A stretch of DNA of 64,000 nt from the NCBI GenBank assembly GCA_035500755.1, contig DATJXB010000067.1, forward strand, positions 36,023 through 100,022, in the 5' to 3' direction. Each line of letters starts with the position of its first letter. Position 1 is the first letter of the stretch. Of the stretch, positions 6,469-44,105 are shown piece after piece. The stretch comes from Thermoanaerobaculia bacterium. GTDB taxonomy: Bacteria > Acidobacteriota > Thermoanaerobaculia > UBA5066 > Gp7-AA6. A model generated the notes under the pieces. The model did no database searches. It was given only the letters and a program-made list of their open reading frames with translations, and was not told the DNA's origin. The translations under genes and the position numbers were made by a program.

Positions 6469-7350
6469 TCAAGCGGTCGGGCGGTTCGCGTTCGGGTCGT
6501 CCGGGGGCGGCACCTTGGGGCCGTACTTCGTGTAGTGCGCGAAGGCGCCGGCGACCGCGCCGAAGATCGCGAGAACGCCGATCGGCCGGAGCACCTTCTT
6601 CCAGAACTTGACGCCCCACGGCACGTGCGGGTCGGCCGGGAGGCCGTAGAGCCCGGGCTGGTCGCCAAACGCGAGCACGGTGACGACGGCCGTGCCGCCG
6701 ACGCCTGGCGGGTCGTAGACGGCGGCCTGTTTGAAGCCGCTCGCCTGGAGCTGGTGGACCCGGTTCTTCGCGAGCTCGAGCATGTCCTCCTTCGTCCCGA
6801 AGTGGAGGCAGCCCGTCGGGCAGGATTTGATGCACGCGGGCTCGAGGCCGACCGACACGCGGTCGACGCAGAGCGTGCACTTGGCCATCTTCCCCGTCGC
6901 CTGCGAGAAGCGCGGCACGTCGAACGGGCAGCCGGTCTCGCAGTACTTGCAGCCGATGCACTGGTCCGGGTTGACGTCCACGATGCCGTTGGCGTACTGC
7001 ACGATCGCGCCCGGCGCCGGGCACGCCGCGAGGCAGCCGGGCTCGTCGCAGTGCATGCACTGGTCCTTGCGCATCAGCCAGGCGAAGCCGCCTTCGAAGT
7101 CGTGCTCGTTGAACCGGATCAGGTTCCAGAATTCGGCGTGGAGGGTCGGCAGCGTCTGATAGCTCCCGACCTGCTGCGTGGCGACCGGGCCGAGGTCGTT
7201 CCACTCCTGACAGGCGACCTCGCAGGCTTTGCAGCCGATGCACGTCGTGGTGTCGATGTACTTGGAAACGGTGTCCGCGTGGCGGAGTCCCGAGAAGCTC
7301 CCGAGGACCGAGGCCGAGGAGCGGCGAAGGTCGAGCGCTTGTGTGGCCAT
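6469..7350 (-). CDS. fdnH: Formate dehydrogenase-N iron-sulfur beta subunit (4x[4Fe-4S], C-terminal TM anchor)
   Basis: 293 aa with four ferredoxin-type cysteine clusters (CIGCKACEVAC, CMHCDEPGCLAAC, CIGCKYCETGC, CTLC...CIKSC) and a C-terminal hydrophobic helix. Confidence 0.9.
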   Translation of the reverse strand: MATQALDLRRSSASVLGSFSGLRHADTVSKYIDTTTCIGCKACEVACQEWNDLGPVATQQVGSYQTLPTLHAEFWNLIRFNEHDFEGGFAWLMRKDQCMHCDEPGCLAACPAPGAIVQYANGIVDVNPDQCIGCKYCETGCPFDVPRFSQATGKMAKCTLCVDRVSVGLEPACIKSCPTGCLHFGTKEDMLELAKNRVHQLQASGFKQAAVYDPPGVGGTAVVTVLAFGDQPGLYGLPADPHVPWGVKFWKKVLRPIGVLAIFGAVAGAFAHYTKYGPKVPPPDDPNANRPTA

Positions 7351-21050: not shown

Positions 21051-23021
21051 ATGGCCGACGCCAATGACCGGATCCTCGAGGCCCTCCTGCAAGAGAAGCG
21101 CCAGTTCGCGCCTCCCAGGGATTTCGCGAAGAAAGCCAACGTTTCGAGCCCGGCCGTGTACCGCAAGGCCGACCGCGCGTTCGCGAAATTCTGGGAAGGC
21201 TTCGCGAAAGAGCTCGACTGGTACAAGCCCTGGAAGAAGGTGCTCGACTGGAAGCCGCCGAAGGCGAAGTGGTTCGTCGGCGGCAAGCTGAACGTCTCGG
21301 TCAACTGCGTCGACCGGCACCTGAACGGTCCGCGCAAGAACAAGGCCGCTCTCGTCTGGGAAGGCGAGCCGGGCGACCAGCGGACCTTGACCTACCGCGA
21401 TCTTTACCGGGAGGTCGGCAAGTTCGGGAACGCACTGCGTAAACTCGGTGTGAAGAAGGGCGACCGGGTCACGCTCTATCTGCCGATGATCCCGGAGCTG
21501 CCGATCGCGATGCTCGCCTGCGCCCGCATCGGCGCGATCCATTCGGTGGTCTTCGGCGGCTTCTCGGCCGAGTCGCTCCGGGACCGGATCAACGACCAGG
21601 GCGCGAAAGTCCTCGTCACCGCCGACGGCGGCTGGCGGCGCGGCAACGTCGTCCCCCTGAAGCAGATCGCCGACGAGGCGCTCCAGAACACGCCGTCGAT
21701 CGAAGCGGTCGTCGTCGTGCGCCGCACCGGGACGCCGATCCAGTTCAACGAGGGCCGCGAGCACTGGTGGCACCGTCTGATGGAGGGCTCTCCGATCCCG
21801 TGCAAGCCCGAGAAGATGGACGCCGAGGATCCGCTCTACATCCTCTACACGTCCGGCACGACGGGGAAGCCCAAGGGGATCCTCCACACGAGCGGCGGCT
21901 ATCTGGTCGGCACGTACGCGACGTCGAAGTGGATCTTCGACTTGAAAGACGACGACGTCTACTGGTGCACGGCGGACATCGGCTGGGTCACCGGCCACTC
22001 GTACGTGGTCTACGGGCCTCTGGCCAACGGCGCGACGTGTCTCATCTACGAGGGCTCGCCCGACACGCCGGCGCGCGACCGGTTCTGGGATCTCATCGAG
22101 CGGCACGGCGTCACGATCCTGTACACGGCGCCGACGGCGATCCGCGCCTTCATGAAGTGGGGCACCGAGTGGCCGGCGAAGCACGACCTTTCGTCGCTGC
22201 GGCTGCTCGGCTCGGTCGGCGAGCCGATCAACCCCGAGGCCTGGATCTGGTACCAGAAGTACATCGGCGGCGGGAAGTGCCCGGTCGTCGACACGTGGTG
22301 GCAGACGGAGACCGGGATGATCCTGATCTCGCCGCTGCCCGGGATCACGAAGACGAAGCCGGGATCGGCCACGCGCGCGTTCCCGGGCATCGAGGCGAAG
22401 ATCCTCGACCTCGCCGGCAAGGAAGTCAAAGTCGGCGGCGGCTACCTCGCGATCACGCGTCCGTGGCCCGCGATGCTGCGCACGATCTGGGGTGACGACG
22501 AACGCTACGTCAAGACCTACTGGTCGAAGTGGGGCAAGGACGTCTACTTCCCGGGCGACGGGGCCAAACGAGACGCCGACGGCTACTTCTGGCTCCTCGG
22601 CCGCGTCGACGACGTGATGAACGTCGCGGGGCACCGGATCGGCACGATGGAGGTGGAGTCGGCGCTCGTCGACCATCCGTCGGTCGCCGAGGCGGCGGTG
22701 GTCGGCGTGTCCGACGAGATCAAGGGCACCGCGATCGCCGCCTTCGTCATCCTCAAGGAGCGCGACAAGACCGCGGCGGCGCACGCCGACAAGGGCCTCC
22801 ACGACACCGTCCGAAATCACGTTGGGAAGAAGATCGGCGCCATCGCCAAGCCCGACCGCCTCTTCTTCGTCTCGGACCTGCCGAAGACCCGGTCCGGCAA
22901 GATCATGCGGCGGCTCCTGCGGGACATCGCCGAGGGCCGCGTCCTCGGCGACACGACGACCCTCGCCGACGCCAACGTCGTCGCCGCGCTCAAGAGCCAG
23001 TACGAGGAGAAAGAGGGATAG
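21051..23021 (+). CDS. acs: Acetyl-CoA synthetase (AMP-forming)
   Basis: In-frame ATG at 21051 ([22 protein letters not shown]...) within table ORF 20961-23021. Full-length match to the Acs pattern (...TYRDLYREV..., [33 protein letters not shown]). Confidence 0.9.
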
Positions 23022-26529: not shown

Positions 26530-27657
26530 TCACGAGTTCAACCCCTGGCGCAGCTCCCGGGCGAGGATTTCGACCCCCGACCGGGTTCCGCCCGTGAGCT
26601 TTTCCTTCCAGATGGTCTCGGTCTCGAACCGGCGGTCGCCGATCGACTCCGCCCACGGGCGCAGGGCGGCGTCGAGCTCGCCCGCCGACCAGACGTCCCC
26701 GCCGCGCTTGCGGACCATCGCGATCACGTAGGGCACGATCCGGATGAAGGCCCGCAGCGAGGTCGAGCTCTTGATCGAGTACTTGCGGCCGGCGAAGGCG
26801 GCGGGGAAGGCGCGGGCCGCCGCCTTGAAGTAGTTCAGGAAGAAGCGCCGTGAGTTCTCGCGGAACTCCCGGGCGATCCGGCCTCCGGCGGTGTCGATCG
26901 CCGCGAACACGTCGCGCAGCTCGTCGGCCAGCGAGGCCTGGGTCACCGAGCCCTTGCCGATCCCCAGCACCTTGATCGAGCCCTTCAGGGGCGAGCCCTC
27001 GTCCTCGTTCAGGGTCCGGATGACGTCGTGGGCGGCGGCCAGGTTGTCGTCGCGATAGAGCCGGCGGCCCGCCAGCGAGATCAGGTGCGACGGGTTCAGT
27101 TTCGTGTGCTTGCTGTTGATCGTCACGAAGAGCTCGACGACCTGGTCGGCCGTCAGGCTGTCGAAGACGACGGCGGGGACCTGGAAGTCCTTCAGGCTGT
27201 GCTTCTCCGCGAGCTGGTGCAGCGCGAGAAGCCGGTGCTGGCCGTCCAGGGCGCGGAGGATCCCGGACTCCTCGGGCAGCTTCAGCGACCCGGCGTCGGA
27301 CCGTCCGCTCGACGGGGAAAACTCCAGGCGCTTCTCCGACACGAGGAGAACGCTTCCCGGAATCGCGGGCAGCGTGCCGGAGTCGGCGCACTGCAGGTAA
27401 TAAGCGACGAGCTCGTCGATCTTCTTCTTGATGATGGGGCGCTGGAAGGCCTGCTCCGAGGCCGAGATCTTCCGTTCCAGGAACTCCCAGTTCACCCGTC
27501 CCGCCGCGACCTTCGCGTGGCCCCGCGTCGTCTGGCTGCCCGGCCCGAAGGAGAGGACCTCGAAACCCACCAGCGACTGGAGGTCCTCTCCCGACAGGAG
27601 AGCCTCGTAGAAGCGCACGCCGAACTGATTCAGGCGGAGCGAGGGAACCGAGATCAT
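26530..27657 (-). CDS. DGQHR-domain protein (DndB-like, ParB/Srx-fold)
   Basis: ATG with GGAGG RBS (MISVPSLRLNQFGVRFY...). Signature ...LRALDGQHRLLAL... plus ...FVTINSKHTKL... The upstream 172 codons of the table ORF are not coding. Confidence 0.75.
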   Translation of the reverse strand: MISVPSLRLNQFGVRFYEALLSGEDLQSLVGFEVLSFGPGSQTTRGHAKVAAGRVNWEFLERKISASEQAFQRPIIKKKIDELVAYYLQCADSGTLPAIPGSVLLVSEKRLEFSPSSGRSDAGSLKLPEESGILRALDGQHRLLALHQLAEKHSLKDFQVPAVVFDSLTADQVVELFVTINSKHTKLNPSHLISLAGRRLYRDDNLAAAHDVIRTLNEDEGSPLKGSIKVLGIGKGSVTQASLADELRDVFAAIDTAGGRIAREFRENSRRFFLNYFKAAARAFPAAFAGRKYSIKSSTSLRAFIRIVPYVIAMVRKRGGDVWSAGELDAALRPWAESIGDRRFETETIWKEKLTGGTRSGVEILARELRQGLNS

Positions 27658-27806
27658 GTCCACCTCCTGGCCCGGATACCGCAGCGTCCTCCGGAAGGGC
27701 TCGCGAGCCGGACTCCGGAGCGGGGAAAGGGTATACCGGGCGCCCGTCCGTTGAACCCATGAGATTGGGGCCGAAAACGGGCCCGTCGGGTCCGATCCGG
27801 AGGGAC

Positions 27807-28148
27807 TCAGGGCGGGGACACGGACTTCCAGTCTTCGCCGGCCATCATCTGCCCGTGAATCTGGCTGGCCCCGATCAGGATGCCCTTGAGCTCGGCCGTG
27901 AGGATCGCGGCGAGCTCGGGAAGGGCCTCGGGCCGGGCGACCGGAACCGAGCACTCGACGGTCGACTGGCCGAGGGACGCGAAGAAAGGAGACGGCCGGC
28001 GCGTCCAATCGGAGTCGCTGCGCCGGTGCTTGGTCATCAGGAACGCCGCCAGCCGCCGCTCGTCCCAGGGTTCCGACATCATCCAGCAGAAGTTCGCGCG
28101 GAGCGCTTTCTGCTCGACGGTGGGCGTGTCGCTGGCAATCGAGATCGA
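27807..28148 (-). CDS. Hypothetical protein (about 113 aa), no recognisable domain
   Basis: Strong GC3 bias in this frame (MSISIASDTPTVEQKALRANFCWMMSEPWDERRLAAFL...). Sits 150 nt upstream of the DGQHR gene. Confidence 0.4.
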   Translation of the reverse strand, partial: SISIASDTPTVEQKALRANFCWMMSEPWDERRLAAFLMTKHRRSDSDWTRRPSPFFASLGQSTVECSVPVARPEALPELAAILTAELKGILIGASQIHGQMMAGEDWKSVSPP

Positions 28149-28193
28149 CATGTCCCGCCTCAAACGATAGCATTCCCGCGTTCGACCAACACC

Positions 28194-28952
28194 GTGAAAA
28201 GCGCTGTTTTAGGGCTCCTGACGCTCGCCGGAGCAGCCGTGCTCGCCGCCTCGCCGGGCGACGAGCGGGTGTACGCCTCGCACCTGATGGTGGATCAGGA
28301 AGTCACGGTGGCGGCCCGCATCACGGGCATCATCGACACGATCCTCGTCGACCGCGGCAGCGCCGTGACGCAGGGCCAGGTGCTCGCGACGCTCGAGGCG
28401 AGCGAGTACGACGCGGCGATCCGGCAGGCCAGGGAAGACATGGACCTGAAGAAGATCGAGTACGAGCGGGCCGAATCGCTGGTCTCCTCGAGCGTCATGA
28501 GCGCCCAGGATCGCGACGAGAAGAAGGCCCAGTACCAGGTCGCCGTCGCGACGTGGGAGCGGGCCAAGGCGGTGCGCGACTACACCGTCATCCGGGCGCC
28601 CTTCGCGGGGATCGTCACGGAGAAGTACGCGCGCCTCGGCGAAAAGGTCATCGAGGACAAGAACGACCCGCTCTTCAAGATCACGGCGGTCGAGCCGCTG
28701 CTCGCCCGCGTGTACCTGCCGGAGGAGCAGCTCCTCCGGGTCAAGGTCGGGGACCGCGTCGAAGTGGTCGCGGATCGTTTCCCCGACGTGAAGACGAGCG
28801 GCGAGGTGCAGTTCGTCAGCCCGACCGTCGACGCCGCGAGCGGCACCTTCCAGGTGGTCGTGCGCGTCCGGAGGGACCCCGCCCGCACGGTGCTCCGGCC
28901 GGGCCTCGCCGTTCAGGTGCGATTCGCCCAGCCCGCGGCCGGGACGCGGTAA
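28194..28952 (+). CDS. HlyD-family / RND-type periplasmic adaptor (membrane-fusion-protein-like), short form with N-terminal signal anchor
   Basis: GTG start (VKSAVLGLLTLAGAAVLAAS...), then the biotin-lipoyl-like motif ...VAARITGIIDTILVDRGSAVTQGQVLATLE...IRAPFAGIVTEKYARLGE..., a short alpha-hairpin and a beta-barrel domain. No cognate pump gene adjacent. Confidence 0.7.
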   Translation: MKSAVLGLLTLAGAAVLAASPGDERVYASHLMVDQEVTVAARITGIIDTILVDRGSAVTQGQVLATLEASEYDAAIRQAREDMDLKKIEYERAESLVSSSVMSAQDRDEKKAQYQVAVATWERAKAVRDYTVIRAPFAGIVTEKYARLGEKVIEDKNDPLFKITAVEPLLARVYLPEEQLLRVKVGDRVEVVADRFPDVKTSGEVQFVSPTVDAASGTFQVVVRVRRDPARTVLRPGLAVQVRFAQPAAGTR

Positions 28953-28968: not shown

Positions 28969-29669
28969 ATGGCCGGAAAGCCGCGCTCCTCGGCCCGTCT
29001 GCGCACGACGCTCGACCGGGTCCTCGTTCACGACGTCAAGAACGTTTCCTTCCGCCTGCGGCTGCTGCTGTCCAATCTCGACGAGCACTGGGACGATCCC
29101 CAGTTCCGGGAGACCGTCAAGGAGCTGCTGGCTTCGACGGTCGAGCGCCTCGAGCAAGCCGTCGGGCGGCTCTCGACCGACGAGGACGCCGTCCTCATCA
29201 AGGTCTCGCTCGACGTCAACGGCCTGATCCACGAGGTCGTCGCCCGGCCGCCGCGGCGGCAGCGTCCCGGGGCCCGGGCGGCCCCGGCGCGCCTCGCCCT
29301 CGGACAGGTGCCCCGGATCTGGGGCGACCCGTTCTACCTAGGCGACGCCTTCGCGAGCCTGCTCGAGAACGCGGCCGAGGCCGCCGGTCCGGACGGCCGG
29401 GTGCTGGTGCGGACGTTCGCGACGGGCTCCGGCCGGCGCGCGCGCGTCGTGGTCGAGGTCATCGACAACGGATCCGGGATGACCCAGGAATTCCTGCGCG
29501 ACCGCCTCTTCCGGCCGTTCGAGACCACCAAGCCCGAGGGCGTCGGGCTCGGTCTGGCGACGGCCAGCCAGATCGTGCGCTTCCACCGCGGGACGATCCG
29601 GATCCTGTCGCAGCCGGGCGGCGGCACCCTCGTGCGCTGCGCGTTCCCGGCGGCCGCGGAGGCCTCGCC

Positions 29670-29673
<4 letters not shown>
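28969..29673 (+). CDS. Soluble sensor histidine kinase (HisKA + HATPase_c, essentially no sensor domain)
   Basis: 234 aa: H-box VLVHDVKNVSFRL; ATP-lid motifs ...ENAAEAAGPDGRVLVRT...VIDNGSGM...GVGLGLA. Confidence 0.8.
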
Positions 29674-31040
<1,367 letters not shown>

Positions 31041-31163
31041 GTAGATTAATTATTCAACCGACGGCGAGTTAATTTTTCATCCTCCCGGTATCGTGGGAAA
31101 GCGACCAGGCCGTAAACATCTGAAAGATAAAGATCAGATTAGAGACGCCGAGCCACGGCAGGC

Positions 31164-31179
31164 TGGCCCCGGTCTTGCG
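31164..31179 (+). promoter_or_regulatory. Sigma-54 (-24/-12) promoter for the repeat-peptide gene
   Basis: TGGCCC-cggtc-TTGCG versus consensus TGGCAC-N5-TTGCA. GG and GC elements at correct spacing. About 11 nt from the implied TSS, about 30 nt upstream of RBS/ATG. Directly downstream of the sigma-54 activator gene. Confidence 0.65.
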
Positions 31180-31209
31180 ATGAACGCTGGCCAGGAGGGA
31201 AGAAATCAA

Positions 31210-31554
31210 ATGGCCAACGAAGTGAAAATCAGACTGACGGACGCCCAGAAGGCGAAGATCAAGGAAGCCACTGGGAAGGACCTTCCGGAGATTCACGTCG
31301 AGAGTTTCGGCTCCACGCCGGCGGTTTCGGCGCCCGCTCCGAGCGCTTCGCTCAAGTCGGCGAAGTCGATGCGCGCGGCGAAGTCGCTCCGCGCCGCCAA
31401 GTCGATGCGCGCGGCGAAGTCGCTCCGCGCGGCGAAGTCCATGCGGTCGGCCAAGTCGATGAAGGCGGCGAAGTCGATGCGCTCGGCCAAGTCCATGCGC
31501 TCCGCCAAGTCGATGCGCTCGGCCAAGTCGATGCGGTCGGCCAAGTCGCTCTAA
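31210..31554 (+). CDS. Small secreted-peptide-like protein: 48-aa N-terminal region followed by ~11 tandem basic hexapeptide repeats (AKSMRS/AKSLRA)
   Basis: ATG at 31210 with RBS AGGAGGGAAG 7 nt upstream: MANEVKIRLTDAQKAKIKEATGKDLPEIHVESFGSTPAVSAPAPSASLKS(AKSMRA)(AKSLRA)...(AKSL). Table ORF 31093-31554 is the same frame with a longer, RBS-less start. A rho-independent terminator follows. Confidence 0.7.
   Translation: MANEVKIRLTDAQKAKIKEATGKDLPEIHVESFGSTPAVSAPAPSASLKSAKSMRAAKSLRAAKSMRAAKSLRAAKSMRSAKSMKAAKSMRSAKSMRSAKSMRSAKSMRSAKSL
31351..31554 (+). repeat. Tandem 18-bp direct repeat (~11 units, consensus GCSAAGTCGATGCGCKCG), in-frame within the peptide gene
   Basis: Units begin at 31360, 31378, 31396, ... 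Each encodes A-K-S-[ML]-[RK]-[AS]. Not CRISPR: no unique spacers. Confidence 0.9.
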
Positions 31555-31573: not shown

Positions 31574-31603
31574 CGCCCCGCTTCGGCGGGGCGTTTTTTT
31601 TTG
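31574..31603 (+). terminator. Rho-independent terminator after the repeat-peptide gene
   Basis: gccccgc-ttcg-gcggggc followed by a 9-T run. Confidence 0.75.
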
Positions 31604-31699: not shown

Positions 31700-33853
31700 C
31701 TACCACCAGATCACGGTCTGGAGCCAGTGGCGCAGGACGCGCCACGAGCGCGACAGAAACGAGCGCCGGCCGAGCGAGATCTTGGCGTGCCCGGTCATGC
31801 CGGGCAGATAAGCGCCATCGGGGTTGTCGAAGGCGACGACCGCCACGAAACGCTCCGGCAGGTCGCGCGCCCGGAGCGTCTGCGTCGTGCCGTCGGCGGT
31901 GTGGGGCAGCTCGTGCGCCGCCGCGCCGACCTGGACGATGCGTCCTTCGAGGATCCGCGCGGGTCTCGCCCTCAGCTGCATCGCCACCGGTGCCCCCGGG
32001 TGCAGGTAGGCGAGCAGGCGCTCGGAGACGGGAATCTCGGCCTTCAGTCGGTCGCACTCGCCGACGCGCGCGATGACGGCACCGGCGGGAACGAAGCGAT
32101 CCGCCAGGTCCTGGGTTCGGCGGGTGAGCAGGCGCCCGGCGATGGGGCTCTCGACCGAGAGGCGCCGCAGGCGATCCTCCTCGCGGGCGAGCGCCATCGC
32201 GGCGGCGACCTCGCGGTTCTCGGCGTGGAAGACACCCTGGGCGTCGGCGGCGTCGCGCTGCCGGCTCGTGCGCTTGCGCGAGGCGTCGCGGACGGCCGAG
32301 GCGCCGGCGAATCCGGACGCGACGTCGGGGCTGTCGAGGACCGCGACGACGTCGCCCATCTTCACGCGGTCGCCTTCGCGGAAGCGCACGGCGACGATCG
32401 TGCCGTCGTCGGGCGCCTGGATCGCCGCCTCGGTCCAGGGTTGCAGCTCCGCCTCCGTCTCCAGTCTCCACGGCGCCCAGGGCACGATCAGTGCCAGCAG
32501 GAGGACGGCCCCTCCGGCGACGAGAGCCGTCCGGGATCGACGGGACATGAGCAACTCCTTCTTGTCGAGGTAGAGGAGGCGGAGGCCCTGGAGGAACGCG
32601 CGGACGTCCTTCCGGAAGAGGCGCAGCAGCGTCAGGATCAGGAGAACGAGGGCGACGTGGGGGAAGTATTTCGCGTAGAAGTTGTAGAAGAGCTTCGCGA
32701 GGAACACCATGATGAAGACGGTGAACCCGAGGGCGAGCGGGGCGTAGACGAGGAAGATCCGGCGCTTGCGCCGCGACAGGACCGGCACCTCGACGTTCAG
32801 GCGCAGGACGTGGCGCTTGAGCAGCGCGCCCAGGTACTCGATCGAGTCCTCGCGCAGCTCCGGGATCTCGAGGACGCTGCACAGGGCGTGGTAGCCGTCG
32901 ACCTTGCGGAGCGGGTTGATGTTGAAGAAGAGCGTGGAGATGCCCGTGAAGAGCATCAGCTTGTACGCGAGCTCGTGAAGCAGCGTGTCGGGGTACGACG
33001 CCACCCAGGCCGCGACCGCGAAGCTGCAGATGATCGCCTCGATGTACATGCCGGCCAGCACGACCCACAGCCGGTGCCACTTGTTCTGGAAGAGCAGCGC
33101 GTCGGTCGTGTCGCAGTAGAACGCCGGCATGAAGTAGAGCAGCGCGACGCCGATGTCGTGGACGTCGCCGCCGTAGAACTTGCAGACGTAGCCGTGCGCC
33201 ATCTCGTGGATCAGGCCGATGCCGCAGAGGATGACGAAGAACTGGACCGCGTCCCAGAACGGTTTGCGGAGAAACGCGTAGAGCTCGAGTGTCTGCTCCC
33301 AGATCGGGCCGAAGTGCCGGACGATGACGCCGGTCATCAGCGCGATCATCACGAGCGACACGGCGACGGTGGCGGGGCGCCAGATCCAGCGGACGTACTT
33401 CTGGGTCCGGTTCATGAACTCGTTCGGGTCGAAGACGTGGAAGGGGATGAGGAAGATGTCGAACCCTTCCGCCTTCTGCTCCGCCGTCCGGCGACGCGCG
33501 TCCTTGATCCAGTTCAGCTGCTCGAGGTTGCGCTCGACGGAGGACTTCTCGAGCAGGTCCATGTTCCGGAGAGACTCTTCGTACTCCGGGACGAGCGAGG
33601 CCTCGATCGGCTCGGTGAAGCGGGCCTGGTACGCGTCGTGGATCTCGGACAGAGTCCGCGTTCCGTCGAAGAGCTTCATGAGGTCCCAGGTGGCCTCGTC
33701 GAAGCTGTAGTACTGGGTCCGGTCGGGATTCTTGACGACCCAGTTGACCTCGCCCATCTGAACGACGCGGCGAATGACGAGGTTGCTCTTCAACCGCGGC
33801 CGGCCGGTCGAGCCCTTCTTGAACGCGGCCAGGGGAGCCGCGCCCGACTCCAT
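31700..33853 (-). CDS. Three-part fusion: N-terminal PqqD-like RiPP-recognition-element (RRE) domain, site-2-protease (peptidase M50) polytopic metalloprotease, C-terminal HlyD-like periplasmic domain
   Basis: C-terminal 717 aa of table ORF 31700-35161 (MESGAAP... start; MGEVNWVV at 33757 is the alternative). N-terminus ...YYSFDEATWDLMKLFDGTRTLSEIHDAYQARF...VPEYEESLRNMDLL fits the PqqD pattern (LNETGAxIWxLxDGxRTVxEI...). HEXXH (LIHEMAHGYV) inside a TM helix plus NINPLRKVDGYH (NxxPxxxxDG), the S2P signatures. C-terminal ...GTIVAVRFREGDRVKMGDVVAVLD...SPIAGRL... is HlyD/biotin-lipoyl-like. The upstream part of the table ORF overlaps the GAF gene out of frame. Confidence 0.75.
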   Translation of the reverse strand: MESGAAPLAAFKKGSTGRPRLKSNLVIRRVVQMGEVNWVVKNPDRTQYYSFDEATWDLMKLFDGTRTLSEIHDAYQARFTEPIEASLVPEYEESLRNMDLLEKSSVERNLEQLNWIKDARRRTAEQKAEGFDIFLIPFHVFDPNEFMNRTQKYVRWIWRPATVAVSLVMIALMTGVIVRHFGPIWEQTLELYAFLRKPFWDAVQFFVILCGIGLIHEMAHGYVCKFYGGDVHDIGVALLYFMPAFYCDTTDALLFQNKWHRLWVVLAGMYIEAIICSFAVAAWVASYPDTLLHELAYKLMLFTGISTLFFNINPLRKVDGYHALCSVLEIPELREDSIEYLGALLKRHVLRLNVEVPVLSRRKRRIFLVYAPLALGFTVFIMVFLAKLFYNFYAKYFPHVALVLLILTLLRLFRKDVRAFLQGLRLLYLDKKELLMSRRSRTALVAGGAVLLLALIVPWAPWRLETEAELQPWTEAAIQAPDDGTIVAVRFREGDRVKMGDVVAVLDSPDVASGFAGASAVRDASRKRTSRQRDAADAQGVFHAENREVAAAMALAREEDRLRRLSVESPIAGRLLTRRTQDLADRFVPAGAVIARVGECDRLKAEIPVSERLLAYLHPGAPVAMQLRARPARILEGRIVQVGAAAHELPHTADGTTQTLRARDLPERFVAVVAFDNPDGAYLPGMTGHAKISLGRRSFLSRSWRVLRHWLQTVIWW

Positions 33854-33894
33854 GGGGGCGGCGGAGGCGAGTCGGGCCGTCCGCGGCCTGGCGC

Positions 33895-36357
33895 TCACGG
33901 CAGCAGCGGCCAGAGCTTGAGCCAGAAGTAGCGCACGGGCTTGCGGAAGAGGGCGTAGCCGAGCGGTCGGGTCGCCGCCGCGACCTTTCCCGTGCCGAGC
34001 ATCCCGGGCTTCATCGCTTCGTCCGGGTTGTCGACGCGGGCCTCCGCGATGACGAAGCTCTCCTCGCCTTCCTGGCGGAGCTCCGCGCCGACGCGCTCGA
34101 CCCGGCCGCGGAACACGCGTGTCGGGTAAGGATTCATTTTCAGCGCGACCGGCTGACCCGCCTTGACCAGCGCGGCCTCGGCTTCGGGGACGGCGACTTC
34201 GGCGGTGACGCTGCCCAGATCGGCGACGATCGCGAGCTCCGCGCCGCGGGCGAGCGCCTGTCCGACGCGCTGCTCGACGTGCGGCGTGATCAGGACGCCG
34301 GCCGCCGGAGCGCGCAGAAGGGTCTTGGCGAGCTGCTCCTCGGCGAGCGCCCGCCGGGCCTTCTGCTCCTCGCACCGCGCGCGGGCCTCGAACATCGCCG
34401 CGGCGTCGCCCTCCTGGGTGTGCTGCGCGACGTCGCTCTCGGCGATCGCGAGGGCCGCCGAGGCCTCGGCCAGCGCGGCCCGGTAGGACTCGTCCTTCAG
34501 CGTCGCGACGACGTCGCCGGCGGCGACGCGGTCGCCCTCGCGGTGGAGGACCTCTTTGACGACGCCCTCGACGGCGGCCGTGATGGCGGCCCGGCGCGCC
34601 GGGAGCACGCGGACCGGCCCCTCCACGCGAATCTTCCACGGCACCGCGACAAGGGCGACCAGCACGATCCCCGCGCCGATCAGCCACGCCTGCCGCCGAC
34701 GGATCGGGATGTCGAGAAGCTTCCGGCGCTTCTCGAGCAGGGGGGCCAGGAACCCGGCGAGCGGGACCTGCTGATAGAGCTGGGCGTTGCGGACGGCGAC
34801 GGTGGCCTGGTTGACGAGGATCGCGAGCAGGTCGCGGTTCCCTTCGTCGAAGGCGAGGGGCTCGGCGCTCTCGAAGCCGAGCGCGCCGAGTTTTCCCTCC
34901 TCGTCCTTGAGGAGGACGCCGAAGAACGACTTGAGGCCCGTCTCGGCGAAGATTGCCCGGAACTTCTCGACCGTCTCCGGCCGCTCGGCCGTGATCTCGC
35001 CGTCCTCGGTCTGGGTGACGGCGACGTCGGTGCCGGAGAGGAAGACCCAGTTGAGCAGATCGTCCAGGCGCCGGACGTTCGGGTCCTTGCGGTCGATCTC
35101 CTTGGCCCCCGAGACGGCGCCGAGGCGGAACCGCCCCTTCTCGAAAATGCCGATGGCGCACCGGTCGTACGGGATCAGCGCGGACGTGGCGTTGACGACC
35201 GTGGCCATGACCTTGTCGAGGTCGAGGGTCGCCGTGATCTCGCGGCTGACGGCGAGCAGGGCGTCGAGCTCTTCGACCTTCTTCTCGGCCTCGTGCTGCC
35301 GCGCGGTGCGGAGCGCGCGCACCGCCTGGCGCGACAGGTCGGCGAGGAGCTCCTCGTCTTCCGCCGAGAACTCGGGGTGGCGGCCGCGCTTGTTGACGAG
35401 GACGAGCGCGCCCACGGGGATCTCGTCCTCCACGAGCGCGATGCCGAGCACCGAGCGCGCGAGGTAGCCGTCGTTCTCCGTGGCGACGGGATCACCTTCG
35501 GGGATCCGGTTGCGCCGCAGCGGCGCCTGGTCGGCCAGGAGGTCGCCGACGACCGGGCTCCCGACGGCCTCGGGCGCGTTCTCGACGTCGTAGTTCTCGT
35601 TGAGAGCGGTCGCGGCGAGCGTCACGTCCTCGCCGTCGAGCCGCCAGAGGGACGCGACCTCGGCGGTCAGGAAGTCGGCCGCTTTGCGCACGATGAGGTC
35701 CGAGAGCTCTTGCTCGTCGATGGTCGACCCGAACGCCTTCGAGAGGTCGTAAAGATTCGTCAGGCGCTCGATGGCGTGGAGCATGCCGACGGTCTTGCGC
35801 TCGGAGCGCAGGGCCCGGCCGAGGGCCGGCGCCGCCTGCTCGAGAAAGCGCTCGAGCCGCGCGAGCGCCTCGTCGGCGTCGGGCATCTCGGTGAAAAAGA
35901 GCGCCAGGAGTCCGACGACGAGGTTCTCGGCTTCGAGCGGCACCGCGAGGCACGCGCGGAAGCCGGGCGGCAGGCCGCGGACGAACGGGTCGCCGTCCGT
36001 GAGCTCCGCACCCGTCAGCACGATCGGCTGCCGGTCGCGGACGAGGTCGTGGACGAAACCGGTCTCTCGAGGCGCCGAACGCCTCAGGAATTTGTCGACG
36101 CCCTCGCCGGAGGCGCCGATGCAGAGAAAGAGCGGGTTGACGGTGTCGGGCGCCCAGAGCAGCGTCGCGTCGGCGCCGGCCATGACCGTGCTCCACCGGG
36201 CCGCCCAGCCGGAAGTCTGGGACAGGTTCTCGCAGAGGGCCAGCTCGGCGAGCGCCGTGACCTCCGCCTCCGCCGCCGAGGTGTCGGCCTCCTCGGCCGC
36301 GTCGCCGTCCTCCCCGTCGACCGGTTCGTCCTCCGGATCCTCGGGTTCGTCCGCCAA
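33895..36357 (-). CDS. Acidic N-terminal tail + three GAF domains + TM + C-terminal HlyD-like periplasmic domain
   Basis: 820 aa: MADEPEDPEDEPVDGEDGDAAEEADTSAAEAE (acidic), three GAF-like blocks (ends ...VGLLALFF, ...VGALVLVNKRG, ...LGALGFESAEP), a TM helix (WLIGAGIVLVALVAVPW) and an HlyD-like domain (...AAITAAVEGVVKEVLHREGDRVAAGDVVATL...LRAPAAGVL...). Confidence 0.8.
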   Translation of the reverse strand: MADEPEDPEDEPVDGEDGDAAEEADTSAAEAEVTALAELALCENLSQTSGWAARWSTVMAGADATLLWAPDTVNPLFLCIGASGEGVDKFLRRSAPRETGFVHDLVRDRQPIVLTGAELTDGDPFVRGLPPGFRACLAVPLEAENLVVGLLALFFTEMPDADEALARLERFLEQAAPALGRALRSERKTVGMLHAIERLTNLYDLSKAFGSTIDEQELSDLIVRKAADFLTAEVASLWRLDGEDVTLAATALNENYDVENAPEAVGSPVVGDLLADQAPLRRNRIPEGDPVATENDGYLARSVLGIALVEDEIPVGALVLVNKRGRHPEFSAEDEELLADLSRQAVRALRTARQHEAEKKVEELDALLAVSREITATLDLDKVMATVVNATSALIPYDRCAIGIFEKGRFRLGAVSGAKEIDRKDPNVRRLDDLLNWVFLSGTDVAVTQTEDGEITAERPETVEKFRAIFAETGLKSFFGVLLKDEEGKLGALGFESAEPLAFDEGNRDLLAILVNQATVAVRNAQLYQQVPLAGFLAPLLEKRRKLLDIPIRRRQAWLIGAGIVLVALVAVPWKIRVEGPVRVLPARRAAITAAVEGVVKEVLHREGDRVAAGDVVATLKDESYRAALAEASAALAIAESDVAQHTQEGDAAAMFEARARCEEQKARRALAEEQLAKTLLRAPAAGVLITPHVEQRVGQALARGAELAIVADLGSVTAEVAVPEAEAALVKAGQPVALKMNPYPTRVFRGRVERVGAELRQEGEESFVIAEARVDNPDEAMKPGMLGTGKVAAATRPLGYALFRKPVRYFWLKLWPLLP

Positions 36358-36397: not shown

Positions 36398-36733
36398 CTA
36401 GAAGCTGGAGACTGCCGCCTCGAGATCCTCGTGGATCTCGAAGACGGAGTCGAGCTTGGTCATCTGGAGGAGCTTGCGGACCTGCTGGCCGGCGTGGAGG
36501 AGCTTGGCCTGACCGCCCTCCTTCTGGGCGAGCGTGAGCGCCCGCACGAGCGCGCCGAGGCCGGAGCTGTCGAGGAAGCCGACCGCCTTCAAGTCGACGA
36601 GCAGGTTGGTCTTGCCCTCTTCGAGCAGACGCGTGACCGTCTTCTTGAACGTCGTCTCGGGCTCGCCGATGACGAGGTCTCCAACCACCGTCAGAATCGT
36701 GACGTCGCCGTCTTCGCTTGTCGTCAGGTCCAT
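36398..36733 (-). CDS. STAS-domain protein (anti-sigma-factor antagonist, SpoIIAA-like), first gene of the GAF-HlyD / M50-HlyD operon
   Basis: 111 aa from internal Met of table ORF 36398-38395: MDLTTSEDGDVTILTVVGDLVIGEPETTFKKTVTRLLEEGKTNLLVDLKAVGFLDSSGLGALV... Conserved DSSGLG phosphorylatable-serine region. Confidence 0.8.
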   Translation of the reverse strand: MDLTTSEDGDVTILTVVGDLVIGEPETTFKKTVTRLLEEGKTNLLVDLKAVGFLDSSGLGALVRALTLAQKEGGQAKLLHAGQQVRKLLQMTKLDSVFEIHEDLEAAVSSF

Positions 36734-36814
36734 TGGAACGGGGCGGATTATGTCAAAAAAGGCCCGGCGCGCCAGTGGGGAGGCCGGGGCTTGAAAGGCG
36801 GTAAATTGCACCCC

Positions 36815-37825: not shown

Positions 37826-38087
37826 CCCTCGCCCGGGGGCGGCATCGAATCTCCGGCGGGATGAGATCCGGGACGTCCGGTTTCTCGTATTCGTGTCTGG
37901 AGGTCCTCGAAGGCCGCATGAATCTTGACGTCGCGGCGGGGAGGCGGAGGTAAGATTCGGCGCCAATGGCGCTCCCCGCGGGAGGAGCGCGAGGCAAACC
38001 GGTCGATCGCAGGCGTAGCTCGGCACGGCCATGTCGGCTGGACCGAATTCGATGACGCCCCGTCGGGGCAAGAAAAGGAGACTGGGG

Positions 38088-38495
38088 ATGAAGAAGGGTG
38101 ACCTGACGACGAAGGCGATCGGGTTGGCGATCGCCGGCGTGCTCGCGGGCTCGGGCCTGGCGAGCGCGATTCCTGCCAAGAACGCGAGCGCGAAGACGAC
38201 CGCCGGCGACGAGAAGGCCAAGGACACGAAGGCCGCGTCGGACAAGCACGTCTGCAAGGGCCAGAACTCCTGCAAGGGCAAGGGCGGCTGCAAGAGCGGC
38301 GACGCCGGCTGCGCGGGCAAGAATTCCTGCAAGGGCAAGGGTGGCTGCGCCTCGGCCGACATGAAGCACTCCTGCAAGGGCATGAACTCCTGCAAGGGTC
38401 ACGGCGGCTGCAAGACGGGCGACGGCGGCTGCGCGGGCAAGAACTCCTGCAAGGGCAAGGGCGGCTGCGCGGTCCCGGTCAAGAAGGCGGCGTAA
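38088..38495 (+). CDS. Bufferin-like RiPP precursor (BUF_6/12Cys type): Sec signal peptide + 12-Cys core of four CKGxNSCKGKGGC-type repeats
   Basis: ATG at 38088 with RBS AAAAGGAG: MKKGDLTTKAIGLAIAGVLAGSGLASAIPAKNASA... then ...HVCKGQNSCKGKGGCKSGDAGCAGKNSCKGKGGCASADMKHSCKGMNSCKGHGGCKTGDGGCAGKNSCKGKGGCAVPVKKAA. Lower GC than flanks. Immediately upstream of the MNIO + DUF2063 genes. Confidence 0.75.
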   Translation: MKKGDLTTKAIGLAIAGVLAGSGLASAIPAKNASAKTTAGDEKAKDTKAASDKHVCKGQNSCKGKGGCKSGDAGCAGKNSCKGKGGCASADMKHSCKGMNSCKGHGGCKTGDGGCAGKNSCKGKGGCAVPVKKAA

Positions 38496-38555: not shown

Positions 38556-39449
38556 ATGACCCCGAACGCTGCCTCCCGCGTCCCCGCCGTCCGGAACCGC
38601 TGGGGCTTCGAAGACCTCGGCATCGGCGTGGGCCTCCGGACCATTCACTATCCGCACATCCTCGAGAACCGGCCCGACGTGGACTTCTTCGAGATCCTCT
38701 CGGAGAACTACATGGACACGGGCGGCCGCCCTCTCTGGGTGCTCGACCAGGTCGCGGAGCGCTACCCGATCGTGATGCACGGCGTCTCGATGAACATCGG
38801 CAGCGCCGATCCGCTCGACCGCGAGCACCTGGCGAAGTTGAAAGCCCTCGCCGGGCGCACCAGGGCGCGCTGGGTGTCGGACCATCTCTGCTGGACCGGC
38901 GTCGCCGGCCGCAACACGCACGACCTCCTGCCGATGCCGCTGACCGAAGAGGCGCTCGCGCATGTGGCCGCGCGGGTCCGCCAGGTCTCGGAGATTCTCG
39001 AGCGCCCGCTGATGCTCGAGAACGCTTCGACCTACGCCGAGTTCGCGGCCTCCTCCATGCCCGAGTGGGAGTTCTTCGGTCGCCTGATGGAGGCGGCCGA
39101 CTGCGGCATGCTCCTCGACGTCAACAACGTCTACGTCAGCTCCTTCAACCACGGCTTCGACCCCGAGCGGTACGTGGACGCGATCGACCCGGCGCGCGTG
39201 ACGCAGTACCACCTCGCCGGGCACACCAACAAGGGCACGCACATCATCGACACGCACAACGACCACGTGATCGACCGCGTCTGGGAGCTCTACGCGCGGT
39301 CCTCGGCGAGGACGGGCAACGTCTCGACGCTCCTCGAGTGGGATGCCGACATCCCGGCCTTCGACGTCGTCCACGCCGAGGCCCTGAAGGCCCGCGCGCA
39401 CCGGCGCGCGGAGAAGAGGGACAAGAAGGTTGCCGCCGCCGCCTCTTGA
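38556..39449 (+). CDS. MNIO enzyme (DUF692, multinuclear non-heme iron oxidative enzyme; MbnB/BufB family)
   Basis: 297 aa: ...LGIGVGLRTIHYPHILENRPDVDFFEILSENYMDTGGRPL...YPIVMHGVSMNIGSADPLD...WVSDHLCWTG...LENASTY... match DUF692 blocks. Confidence 0.85.
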   Translation: MTPNAASRVPAVRNRWGFEDLGIGVGLRTIHYPHILENRPDVDFFEILSENYMDTGGRPLWVLDQVAERYPIVMHGVSMNIGSADPLDREHLAKLKALAGRTRARWVSDHLCWTGVAGRNTHDLLPMPLTEEALAHVAARVRQVSEILERPLMLENASTYAEFAASSMPEWEFFGRLMEAADCGMLLDVNNVYVSSFNHGFDPERYVDAIDPARVTQYHLAGHTNKGTHIIDTHNDHVIDRVWELYARSSARTGNVSTLLEWDADIPAFDVVHAEALKARAHRRAEKRDKKVAAAAS

Positions 39450-44038: not shown

Positions 44039-44054
44039 TGGCACCCGCGTTGCT
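44039..44054 (+). promoter_or_regulatory. Sigma-54 (-24/-12) promoter upstream of the TonB-dependent-receptor-like gene
   Basis: TGGCAC-ccgcg-TTGCT, perfect match to TGGCAC-N5-TTGCW. About 50 nt upstream of AGGAGG RBS and the ATG at 44106. Confidence 0.65.
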
Positions 44055-44105
44055 CTCCGCATCCGTTGCGCCGACGCCTCGCCGGCGTAAGGAGGAATGA
44101 CGAGA

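Follow-up and report, generated by a model that had tools for sequence, protein, structure and literature searches.

A small gene at positions 31210 to 31554 of a 64,000-nucleotide stretch of a Thermoanaerobaculia metagenome-assembled genome (MAG; assembly GCA_035500755.1, contig DATJXB010000067.1; the whole stretch is called the window below) encodes a peptide that consists largely of tandem basic hexapeptides. The locus raises the question of what such a peptide is for, and which machinery, if any, handles it. A preliminary description had suggested a leader with a multi-copy core and had linked the gene to the operon facing it. Our answer, to which we assign a probability of roughly 60%, is that the peptide is the dedicated substrate of a convergently encoded fusion protein, which combines a RiPP recognition element (RRE; RiPPs are peptides made by the ribosome and modified after translation), an M50 protease and an HlyD adaptor domain. 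The leader would be docked, the peptide cut after P37, and the product exported via adaptors. The parts of the gene are the following.

31210 to 31554, + strand: peptide open reading frame (ORF), ATG start, 114 codons, TAA stop
31210 to 31320, + strand: leader, residues 1-37, MANEVKIRLTDAQKAKIKEATGKDLPEIHVESFGSTP, ending at the junction proline P37 (alignment A1)
31321 to 31357, + strand: linker AVSAPAPSASLK, a variable Ala/Pro/Ser stretch between leader and repeats (read from the sequence and the orthologues)
31358 to 31548, + strand: repeat core (AKS[ML][RK][AS])n (Tandem Repeats Finder and codon analysis)

The ORF is a real gene. Its product of 114 amino acids comprises MANEVKIRLTDAQKAKIKEATGKDLPEIHVESFGSTPAVSAPAPSASLKS, ten units of the form AKS[ML][RK][AS] and a final AKSL. 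Tandem Repeats Finder identified an 18-nucleotide period at 31358-31548 (10.6 copies, 82% matches, no indels, score 221), which corresponds to 10 full hexapeptides with partial units at the flanks, so that the original count of about eleven was a fair one. The GC content at third codon positions (GC3) was 0.90 in the frame of the ORF, compared with 0.49 and 0.57 in the other two frames. Among the repeat copies, 14 of 23 nucleotide differences fell on third codon positions, and the variant codons were synonymous in 10 of 18 cases and non-synonymous in 8. The reading frame was intact in 63 of 70 complete orthologues, and every one of the 7 frameshifted versions came from long-read MFD MAGs. The mirror ORF on the opposite strand (31293-31544, 83 amino acids) is an artefact of the repeat. 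ORF, repeat analysis and codon statistics thus agree on a small gene with tandem basic hexapeptides, as first described.

An initial protein search returned 20 small proteins. Their first ~40 residues were nearly identical to those of the window peptide, and the C-terminal repeat was different in each. A scan of the leader alignment against one genome per GTDB species then gave 72 loci (L008-L079) in 72 species-level genomes, almost all labelled Thermoanaerobaculia or Acidobacteriota. The names carried by homologues of the window protease assign the window to Thermoanaerobaculia as well. The leader in these loci follows the consensus M[AGS]NEV[KR]IKLTD[AE]QKAKIKEATG[KRQ]..PEIRV.S[FL]G..P, with 17 invariant columns in alignment A1, and tandem repeats come after it. 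Units included AKSMRA, KAMRAQ, AGKSIAGR, TKAPLRAG, PRANT, SPKL, SLKSP, AAPRN, AAAPRG, KLNA, SARSVEAAR, ARAQT/ARAET and (L[S/T]AQD)n. Periods ranged from 4 to 24 residues (modes 9, 6, 8 and 5) and copy numbers from 3 to 27; in the 63 intact orthologues, with their differing units, all periods were in frame, that is, multiples of 3 nucleotides. The proposed architecture of leader and multi-copy core is therefore borne out as a nearly invariant leader joined to a hypervariable repeat core. This precursor layout was found in the 72 genome loci and in metagenome loci of two other lineages.

The family cores contain 30% A, 13% R, 10% S and 9.5% K, and neither Cys nor Trp. Their net charge lies between +7 and +37, save for about -20 in two Thermoanaerobaculia loci with (L[S/T]AQD)n repeats. 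The window core itself has 21 K+R and zero D/E, and the product of the ORF a net charge of +22. The description of the peptide as extremely basic thus holds for the window and fails for the family, in which these two loci and the Blastocatellia repeats (see below) are acidic. Having neither a fixed period nor a fixed charge, the cores speak against both a purely polycationic role and a defined periodic fold for the family as a whole. The C-terminal residue is Leu in the window and F, V, L or an acidic residue in orthologues. An AlphaFold2 (AF2) single-sequence model predicts residues 48-113 as one long helix with a predicted local distance difference test score (pLDDT) above 90, and a leader helix at residues 11-21. 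Cations occupy every third residue of the window core, for which the hydrophobic moment was 0.04 at 100 degrees and 0.79 at 120 degrees. We rejected the idea that the window core is an amphipathic alpha-helical antimicrobial peptide, as its moment at 100 degrees compares with 0.51 for magainin 2. No transmembrane segment and no Sec-type signal was found in the window peptide, and any export must therefore rely on the leader.

The boundary between leader and core is marked by a proline. It is found 15+/-1 residues past the Gly of the ATG motif in 63 of 70 Thermoanaerobaculia peptides, within the motif G-[SNDG]-[NS]-P (variants GNNP, GSNP, GSSP and GDNP). The corresponding junction is DRANP or DRGNP in Blastocatellia, where the motif recurs in every repeat, and EGRESP in a third lineage, which has RKAP in every repeat. 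Pro is absent from the repeats of the window, and so is the junction motif.

The leader is not only conserved, but the most conserved part of the module. Mean pairwise identities were calculated for the 52 loci (species) with all genes, taking the first 40 residues as the leader. The value for the leader (0.70) exceeded that of every module protein: response regulator 0.66, M50 domain 0.65, GAF region 0.65, adaptor domain of the GAF-HlyD protein 0.58, RRE, small HlyD protein and kinase 0.57 each, and HlyD domain of the protease 0.47.

When 1.84 billion representative proteins were searched with a leader profile, 145 leader matches emerged, including distant ones with (EDRANP...)n, (APKVMAKKA)n, (AAKLPAK)n and (GKRGL)n. 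The contigs of the distant relatives P0263 and P0219 are under 1 kb, because repeats break assemblies. Pfam, NCBIfam and PADLOC scans of the peptide and its distant relatives returned only compositional noise far below the cut-offs (L23 tail, EntC, Hc2, LTXXQ). Leader, repeats and RRE-M50-HlyD module are likewise absent from the curated families and from the full-text literature searched. The peptide family is thus undescribed, as had been suspected, and widespread in soil Acidobacteriota.

Some distant relatives carry the leader in other contexts. In P0252, P0273, P0274, L114 (762-938) and L116 (2151-2384), a leader of the type IKLTD(D/E)Q..QIK.ATGK is combined with a double-glycine-type end, ...DL(D/E)xVAGG; the contigs of L114 and L116 are too short to show partner genes. 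In P0245, P0249 and P0251, it is joined to ...ELS.EELEER..P, a sequence similar to the ELExMEAP motif of daptide leaders. Perhaps the leader module is portable, a recognition element that other maturation systems use as well.

The genes around the peptide gene form a constant module, which is made up in the window of the following.

28194 to 28952, + strand: small HlyD adaptor (HlyD1), 252 amino acids, with N-terminal signal/anchor (Pfam HlyD_D23 and HlyD_3)
28969 to 29673, + strand: histidine kinase, 234 amino acids, DHp and catalytic domains only (Pfam HATPase_c)
29670 to 31040, + strand: sigma-54-dependent response regulator with REC, AAA+ and Fis-type HTH domains (Sigma54_activat 231 bits, Response_reg, HTH_8)
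31700 to 33853, - strand: RRE-M50-HlyD fusion, 717 amino acids, convergent to the peptide gene (Pfam, NCBIfam, AF2)
33895 to 36357, - strand: protein with three GAF domains, a transmembrane segment and an HlyD domain, 820 amino acids (Pfam GAF in 3 stretches, HlyD_D23, HlyD_3)
36398 to 36742, - strand: STAS-domain protein of anti-sigma-antagonist type, a possible accessory and not part of the core (Pfam STAS 64 bits)

In order to quantify linkage, the window proteins were compared by tblastn with the 72 loci, and only loci with enough flank were counted. The M50-HlyD gene was present in 64 of 64 loci and the GAF-HlyD gene in 62 of 62. Regulator, kinase and small HlyD were found in 65 of 66, the sole exception being L070. 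The outer flanking genes (DndB-like and LemA together) were present in only 36 of 56 loci, which implies that the six-gene unit is conserved independently of wider synteny. The order is HlyD, histidine kinase, sigma-54 response regulator, peptide, then, convergently, RRE-M50-HlyD and GAF-HlyD. In L070 (CAVUIX010000002.1, 6000-10000), kinase, regulator and small HlyD are missing upstream, the sigma-54 element, M50-HlyD and GAF-HlyD are retained, and the peptide is an acidic (LTAQD)n.

The module recurs outside the Thermoanaerobaculia. A metagenome scan with distant leaders gave 39 loci, whose peptides have the leader M(P/A)DKKEVTIKLTDEQRxQ(V/I)KxATGKDIxELKVGTV, followed by repeats that each contain an invariant RANP (for example LAIGAEETARANP and LTDRANPTS). 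Named homologues place this RANP group in the Blastocatellia/Pyrinomonadaceae. One of its precursors lies at 10001-10456 of L084. Its gene order is histidine kinase (HAMP), sigma-54 response regulator, peptide, and then, convergently, M50-HlyD, HlyD and GAF-HlyD, so that the small HlyD gene has relocated between the other two adaptor genes; the protease is ~30% identical to that of the window. Look-ups that started from the protease led to a family peptide in 4 of 4 cases. Two of these represent the third type, with the leader MADPKSVVIKLTNEQQEAIRRATGQEITEFKVEALEGR followed by (DAESARKAPFGGG)n; one is of the Thermoanaerobaculia type, and one is a 49-residue form with a single RANP and without an adjacent two-component system. 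The RANP and RKAP families are net acidic. A search with the Blastocatellia protease found 3530 RRE-M50-HlyD homologues at E <= 1e-20. At least two classes, Thermoanaerobaculia and Blastocatellia, have the module, and the names of more distant protease homologues are those of Terriglobia.

The preliminary description had tied the gene to the facing operon and had proposed to check whether homologues co-localise with it. They do, even where the protease is only about 30% identical. Judged from these gene neighbourhoods, the peptide gene has proved inseparable from the RRE-M50-HlyD, GAF-HlyD, HlyD and two-component genes across deep divergence.

Two small ORFs beside the module deserve mention. 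L122 contains, between repeat peptide and protease, a 77-residue ORF (9231-9464, - strand) with a related leader (MESNAMTLRLTEDQRQQVRKLTGRDLEELRL...) and no repeats, which may be a second substrate or a decayed copy. In L124, a 49-residue ORF (7132-7281, - strand; …EELKIERVEDRANPTADSELDPGTGG) is convergent to a 43%-identical M50-HlyD gene, with GAF-HlyD and HlyD genes present. It is a single-unit, leader-truncated RANP form flanked by HicAB and PIN toxin-antitoxin genes.

The domains assigned earlier to the facing operon were all recovered: the protease carries PqqD/RRE, Peptidase_M50 and HlyD domains, and the next gene encodes three GAF domains and an HlyD domain. The M50 domain has the motifs HEMAH at residue 216 and NINPLRKVDG at residue 311 (717-residue numbering) and scores 28.0 bits with Pfam Peptidase_M50 (PF02163, cut-off 27.2), which places it in the M50 family. 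At least 5 transmembrane segments are followed by a C-terminal periplasmic adaptor (HlyD_3, HlyD_D23). The best NCBIfam model was daptide_HExxH (NF041824; E 3.9e-52, 177.6 bits, cut-off 300), and NF058609 (RiPP_HExxH_LiaK) matched with 44.6 bits (cut-off 225).

By sequence, the top PDB match of the N-terminal region was PqqD with an E of 0.15. An AF2 model was built for residues 27-150 of the 743-codon reading (31700-33931), equivalent to the first 124 of the 717 residues, with a 22-sequence alignment. It has strands at 26-32, 35-42 and 47-52 and helices at 53-59, 68-78 and 87-97. A Foldseek search of the PDB with this model returned two complexes of the lasso-peptide protein TbiB1 with its leaders, 5v1u and 5v1v, at the top (E 5e-4, target-normalised template modelling score 0.71); then came 6jx3 (lasso B1) and 5why, an entry for an RRE-containing sactipeptide synthase. 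The N-terminus of the protease is thus predicted to fold as an RRE, with three strands and then helices that match leader-binding RREs. The predicted RRE covers residues of about 14-109 in the 717-residue numbering and about 40-135 in the 743-codon reading.

Core similarity (3-mer Jaccard) was compared with the divergence of individual regions, taken from query-anchored tblastn alignments, in partial Mantel tests that controlled for the identity of the sigma-54 response regulator (RR54), the histidine kinase (HK) and GAF. The correlation was highest for the RRE (r 0.51), followed by the M50 domain (0.38), the adaptor domain of the GAF-HlyD protein (0.26) and that of the M50-HlyD protein (0.20), all with a permutation p of 0.001; for the small HlyD it was 0.03 (p 0.30). 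Within the protease gene, the RRE-coding part lies at the greatest distance from the peptide gene, so that simple co-transfer of adjacent DNA fails to explain this ranking. The co-variation is suggestive of direct contact between protease and core. A bimodal M50-HlyD identity matching the repeat type was also considered and dropped, as the per-domain identities show a gradient (73, 66 and about 50%).

The preferred reading may then be spelled out as a sequence of steps. The leader would be docked by the cytoplasmic RRE, which probably recognises the EVKIKL strand and the TDAQKAKIKEATG helix. Cleavage at the M50 active site would follow P37 of the conserved G-x-(N/S/T)-P junction; the analogy here is to the RRE-site-2 protease of daptides, whose leaders end in Pro(-1). 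As the window repeats are free of Pro, one cut would release A38-L114, a 77-residue, helix-prone polycation of about +22. Three membrane-fusion-type adaptor proteins would carry this core through the envelope, a passage that the GAF domains may gate. Where relatives have units with a Pro, this enzyme could cleave every one of them.

No tailoring enzyme is conserved in the module of any of the three lineages (a distal one would be possible), and the product is for this reason probably unmodified. The earlier proposal of a RiPP precursor is therefore upheld with respect to the layout of leader and core, and finds no support with respect to modification: the product is probably bacteriocin-like and not a RiPP in the strict sense. 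Outside the cell, it might be a signal, a weapon specific to the species or a matrix factor that binds polyanions.

Several points weigh against this reading. Within the module of any lineage, no ABC (ATP-binding cassette), RND (resistance-nodulation-division) or MFS (major facilitator superfamily) transporter and no outer-membrane factor is conserved (a distal TolC-type gene would be possible), so that neither an ATPase or proton-driven transporter as energy source nor an exit duct is in evidence, and HlyD domains alone are no proof of secretion. Cleavage, the cleavage site and binding of the leader by the RRE are all inferred. The RRE model has moderate confidence (pLDDT 73), the Pfam PqqD score of 22.8 bits is 0.6 bits under the gathering score of 23.4, and the match to the daptide protease model stays well below its cut-off. 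The window junction, G34-S-T-P37, is GSTP and not the commoner GxNP. Partial Mantel tests are anticonservative for related sequences, and, oddly, co-variation of the RRE is stronger with the core than with the leader. Finally, the kinase of the Thermoanaerobaculia type (group 1) has no sensor domain for an input that would switch the system on.

A wider claim can be attached to the preferred reading, and we offer it tentatively, as a possibility that may well turn out wrong. Several Acidobacteriota classes may possess an unrecognised peptide-export machine, composed of an RRE-guided site-2 protease-adaptor fusion and two further adaptors, one of them GAF-gated. It would mature and translocate unmodified, hypervariable repeat peptides without an ABC or RND engine. 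The RANP and RKAP precursors would yield many copies of short peptides, as the bacterial equivalent of multi-copy precursors of the alpha-factor type, and the products would be species-specific signals or weapons.

The peptide gene is flanked by its own expression signals.

31047 to 31082, + strand: enhancer-like pair of AT-rich sites, TTAATTATTCAACC and TTAATTTTTCATCC, 22 nucleotides apart (read from the sequence)
31164 to 31178, + strand: sigma-54 -24/-12 element TGGCCC-N5-TTGC (TGGCCCCGGTCTTGC) (pattern match)
31193 to 31198, + strand: ribosome-binding site AGGAGG, 11 nucleotides before the ATG (read from the sequence)
31574 to 31602, + strand: intrinsic terminator CGCCCCGC-TTCG-GCGGGGCG, with an 8-bp GC-rich stem, a TTCG loop and nine T (sequence and hairpin)

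The -24/-12 pattern has 3 matches in the window (0.95 expected). Of 73 sequences (window plus 72 loci), 72 have a relaxed version, TGGY-N7-NTGC, at most 200 nucleotides upstream of the peptide gene, and TGGCAT-N5-TTGCT lies upstream in Blastocatellia loci. The enhancer-like pair of the window lies about 100 nucleotides upstream of the promoter. In orthologous loci, GGTTGAAAAnTCAACC-type palindromes (GGTTGA-N5-TCAACC), often doubled, occur ~110 nucleotides upstream of it, and the 7-mers TGAAAAA, GGTTGAA and TTCAACC are present in 31-35 of the 73 upstream regions. The gene for the AAA+ activator ends 124 nucleotides before the promoter. With a GG-N10-GC element, conserved upstream sites and an adjacent activator gene, the layout is what one would expect of a promoter that depends on an enhancer-binding protein, here the adjacent regulator, whose binding, like transcription itself, is inferred. 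GGAGG is kept before the start in essentially all orthologues, and an Rfam scan of the region gave only sub-threshold matches, all on the terminator hairpin. The gene's own sigma-54 promoter, strong ribosome-binding site and strong terminator, all noted in the preliminary description, are therefore retained.

The other two pattern matches in the window lie elsewhere. One is a second good sigma-54-type element, TGGCACCCGCGTTGC, at 44039-44053 (+ strand), 44 nucleotides before a gene (44097-47018, + strand) for a 973-residue TonB-dependent-receptor-like protein (CarboxypepD_reg, Plug and OMP beta-barrel). The third match is at 21089-21103 (- strand).

Among the regulatory genes, that for the response regulator overlaps the kinase gene by 4 nucleotides. 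The kinase has neither a transmembrane segment nor a sensor domain. Its nearest NCBIfam model is PrsK (PEP_his_kin; 131.4 bits, cut-off 300), which matches at profile positions 482-679 only; for the regulator it is PEP_resp_reg (439.4 bits, cut-off 502.6). HlyD1, for which we set the start at the GTG giving MKSAVLG..., has a single N-terminal hydrophobic segment and matches NCBIfam RND_mfp above the cut-off (149.6 bits). The GAF-HlyD protein has one transmembrane segment (residues 558-576), which joins cytoplasmic ligand-sensing domains to a periplasmic adaptor. The STAS gene adjoins GAF-HlyD in many loci, including L067, L075 and L123, which lack the outer synteny, and it is near the module in L122 and L124. 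Further parts of partner-switching systems were seen beside the module, namely an FHA-GAF-SpoIIE phosphatase in Blastocatellia (L084, 4417-6120) and STAS with a HATPase_c_2 kinase in the third lineage (L122, 13978-14745). Such recurring genes hint at an extra regulatory layer.

This regulatory setting favours the alternative that survives best, which we nevertheless consider unlikely. The peptide would not be exported at all, but would be an intracellular regulatory substrate. Its regulated cleavage would be a signalling step: one fragment might, for instance, act back on the sensorless kinase or on the sigma-54 activator, or the tail might occupy or gate the HlyD assembly, and the repeats would act as a tether of tunable length. 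M50 proteases classically act in regulated proteolysis. The sensorless group 1 kinase, the lack of a transporter in the module, and the nearby GAF, STAS and, elsewhere, SpoIIE-type phosphatase or anti-sigma kinase genes fit this picture as well. However, the peptide has no transmembrane segment, unlike the substrates of regulated proteolysis, and three periplasmic adaptor domains are hard to fit to a purely cytoplasmic circuit. A frozen leader next to a hypervariable core is a hallmark of peptide maturation systems, as is the fusion of an RRE to a protease, and it is the sequence of the core, beyond its length, that co-varies with the protease.

Processing of the precursor into many short peptides was the suggestion that the repeats had first prompted. 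Each unit would be cut out as an AKSMRS-type hexapeptide, a signal or an antimicrobial, in the manner of yeast alpha-factor or fungal Kex2 substrates. We regard this as quite unlikely for the window, even though the tandem units are near-perfect according to Tandem Repeats Finder. The junction motif G-x-[N/S]-P (P37) is absent from the AKSMRS units; AKS[ML][RK][AS], AGKSIAGR and KAMRAQ units alike have neither Pro nor junction motif, and if the cut follows Pro(-1), there is a single site only. Moreover, with periods of 4-24 residues, no motif is common to the group 1 repeats. The idea finds more room elsewhere: the Blastocatellia and third-lineage units each repeat the junction motif (RANP, RKAP) with variable residues in between, and several Thermoanaerobaculia repeats contain Pro (KAPL, SPKL, PRANT, AAPRN). 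Only for relatives with a RANP or RKAP in every repeat is unit-wise cutting plausible. In this genome, one cut that releases the 77-residue peptide is more likely than hexapeptides.

The composition of the core invites a further comparison, with histone H1-like or nucleoid proteins, in which a strand-helix domain with a K/R/A-rich tail would coat DNA or another polyanion and the neighbourhood would be coincidental. The A, R and K contents given above resemble those of H1-type tails, the tail is predicted as a long helix, and Pfam Hc2 (for P0219) as well as ribosomal L23 tails give weak compositional matches. These matches are far below the cut-offs, however, and the conserved part is too short and too Pro-interrupted for a ribbon-helix-helix fold. 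Orthologues with acidic repeats, the (L[S/T]AQD)n peptides of about -20 and the net acidic RANP and RKAP families, do not suit such a role, and linkage to the protease module is strict across three lineages. We therefore hold this explanation to be very improbable.

Low-complexity repeats in high-GC DNA often give long spurious ORFs, and the mirror ORF is a case in point, yet a chance ORF over non-coding tandem-repeat DNA is refuted here by the comparative data, that is, by the conservation of start, ribosome-binding site, promoter and leader and by the in-frame periods of the 63 intact orthologues, as well as by the third-position bias of the copy differences and a GC3 of 0.90, and has practically no chance of being true.

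Other genes of the window were inspected for their own sake. A gene at 38031-38495 (+ strand) encodes a 154-residue, secreted-looking protein with repeated CKG(K/H)GGCK / NSCKGKGGC motifs. Directly downstream (38556-39449, + strand) follows a gene of the MbnB/TglH/ChrH family (DUF692, Pfam 361 bits). Orthologous loci of this pair also contain an HvfC_N gene and resemble clusters for the modification of HvfA-type Cys-motif proteins. The MbnB/TglH-family gene, 7 kb downstream of the peptide gene, was considered as a source of a tailoring enzyme for the repeat peptide and was discarded: it pairs with its own Cys-rich protein and an HvfC-type gene, and it is absent from at least 25 loci that retain the repeat-peptide module. 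On the other side of the module, a DndB/DpdB-like protein (26530-27660, - strand; Pfam DndB 54.8 bits, PADLOC DpdB 44.6 bits) is 87-96% identical across many Thermoanaerobaculia loci, far above its neighbours. Beside it lies a conserved ORF of ~114-118 residues without a family (27807-28163, - strand), and no further Dnd or Dpd genes were seen near it.

Acidobacteriota are among the most abundant soil bacteria and are genetically poorly understood. The repeat peptides have a leader that is frozen and a core that is remade in nearly every species, a combination that usually marks molecules of competition or recognition. If the preferred reading is true, they constitute a family of ribosomal peptides that RiPP and bacteriocin miners have missed, because there is no tailoring enzyme and no ABC transporter to search for, and because low-complexity cores are often masked or break assemblies. 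The module would then represent a second, diderm-adapted use of the RRE-site-2-protease architecture so far known from daptides, and possibly a transporter-less route across the envelope built of membrane-fusion proteins. The invariant leader and the junction Pro offer handles for heterologous expression and for the leader-guided display of arbitrary repeat peptides.

How, then, does the system compare with known ones? Several share only part of its outfit. Three proteins with membrane-fusion domains recall type I or tripartite secretion, but no gene for a transporter or an outer-membrane factor is conserved with them. The PrsK/PrsR system of PEP-CTERM proteins provides the nearest curated models for kinase and regulator, and in it, too, a sigma-54 promoter drives the gene of a small secreted protein. 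However, the scores are below the cut-offs (131.4 vs 300 for TIGR02916 and 439.4 vs 502.6 for TIGR02915), the kinase lacks the membrane sensor of PrsK, the peptide has no PEP-CTERM motif, and no exosortase was noticed next to the module. Multi-core precursors, such as alpha-factor, the fungal Kex2-processed peptides (PMC7329392) and cyanobactins of the PatE type, likewise have one leader followed by tandem units, and the RANP units of Blastocatellia and the RKAP units of the third lineage carry a short invariant motif that flanks variable residues. They differ in the protease, the cellular compartment and, for cyanobactins, the tailoring, and the window repeats have no internal junction motif.

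In other systems, a dedicated protease matures an exported peptide. Double-glycine bacteriocin systems with a peptidase-ABC transporter and an HlyD protein follow a similar logic: the leader is removed by a protease built into the exporter, which also needs a membrane-fusion protein, the peptides stay unmodified, and induction often comes from a two-component system encoded next door. The window protease is of the M50 and not the C39 type, however; the module has no ABC/ATPase component, the leader has no GG site, and the promoter is of the sigma-54 type. In epipeptide systems (YydF/EpeX, YydH/EpeP, LiaK), a membrane M50 protease matures a small ribosomal peptide with two-component control nearby, and according to a review, the M50 protease EpeP is thought both to cleave and to export its epipeptide (PMC10885120). 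Here, by contrast, radical-SAM epimerase and ABC transporter are lacking from the module, the match to LiaK is weak (44.6 bits, cut-off 225), the protease is fused to RRE and HlyD domains, and the cores are repeats.

Daptides come closest. Their leader is removed by MpaP, which combines an RRE with an intramembrane M50 protease, and Pro(-1) is the last residue of the ELExMEAP motif in the leader (Ren et al., 2023, PMC10036551). Daptide hallmarks are an invariant C-terminal Thr and MpaB/C/D/M-type genes for an oxidative decarboxylase, an aminotransferase and a methyltransferase (PMC10036551). The window protease has the same N-terminal RRE fused to an M50 domain, and NF041824 is its best hidden Markov model; the precursor is likewise short and soluble, with a conserved leader, a variable core and a Pro at the junction. 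However, the score of 177.6 bits falls short of the cut-off of 300, the module has no MpaB, MpaC, MpaD or MpaM genes, the peptide ends in Leu and not Thr, and the leader is IKLTDxQ...ATG instead of ELExMEAP. In addition, the protease has a C-terminal HlyD domain, the host is a diderm, there are two further adaptors, and the core is a tandem repeat. The daptide RRE-site-2 protease is thus the closest relative of the machinery described here, while membership in the daptide, epipeptide, PEP-CTERM and type I systems fails on the features tested, and both the product class and the export machinery have a real chance of being of a new kind.

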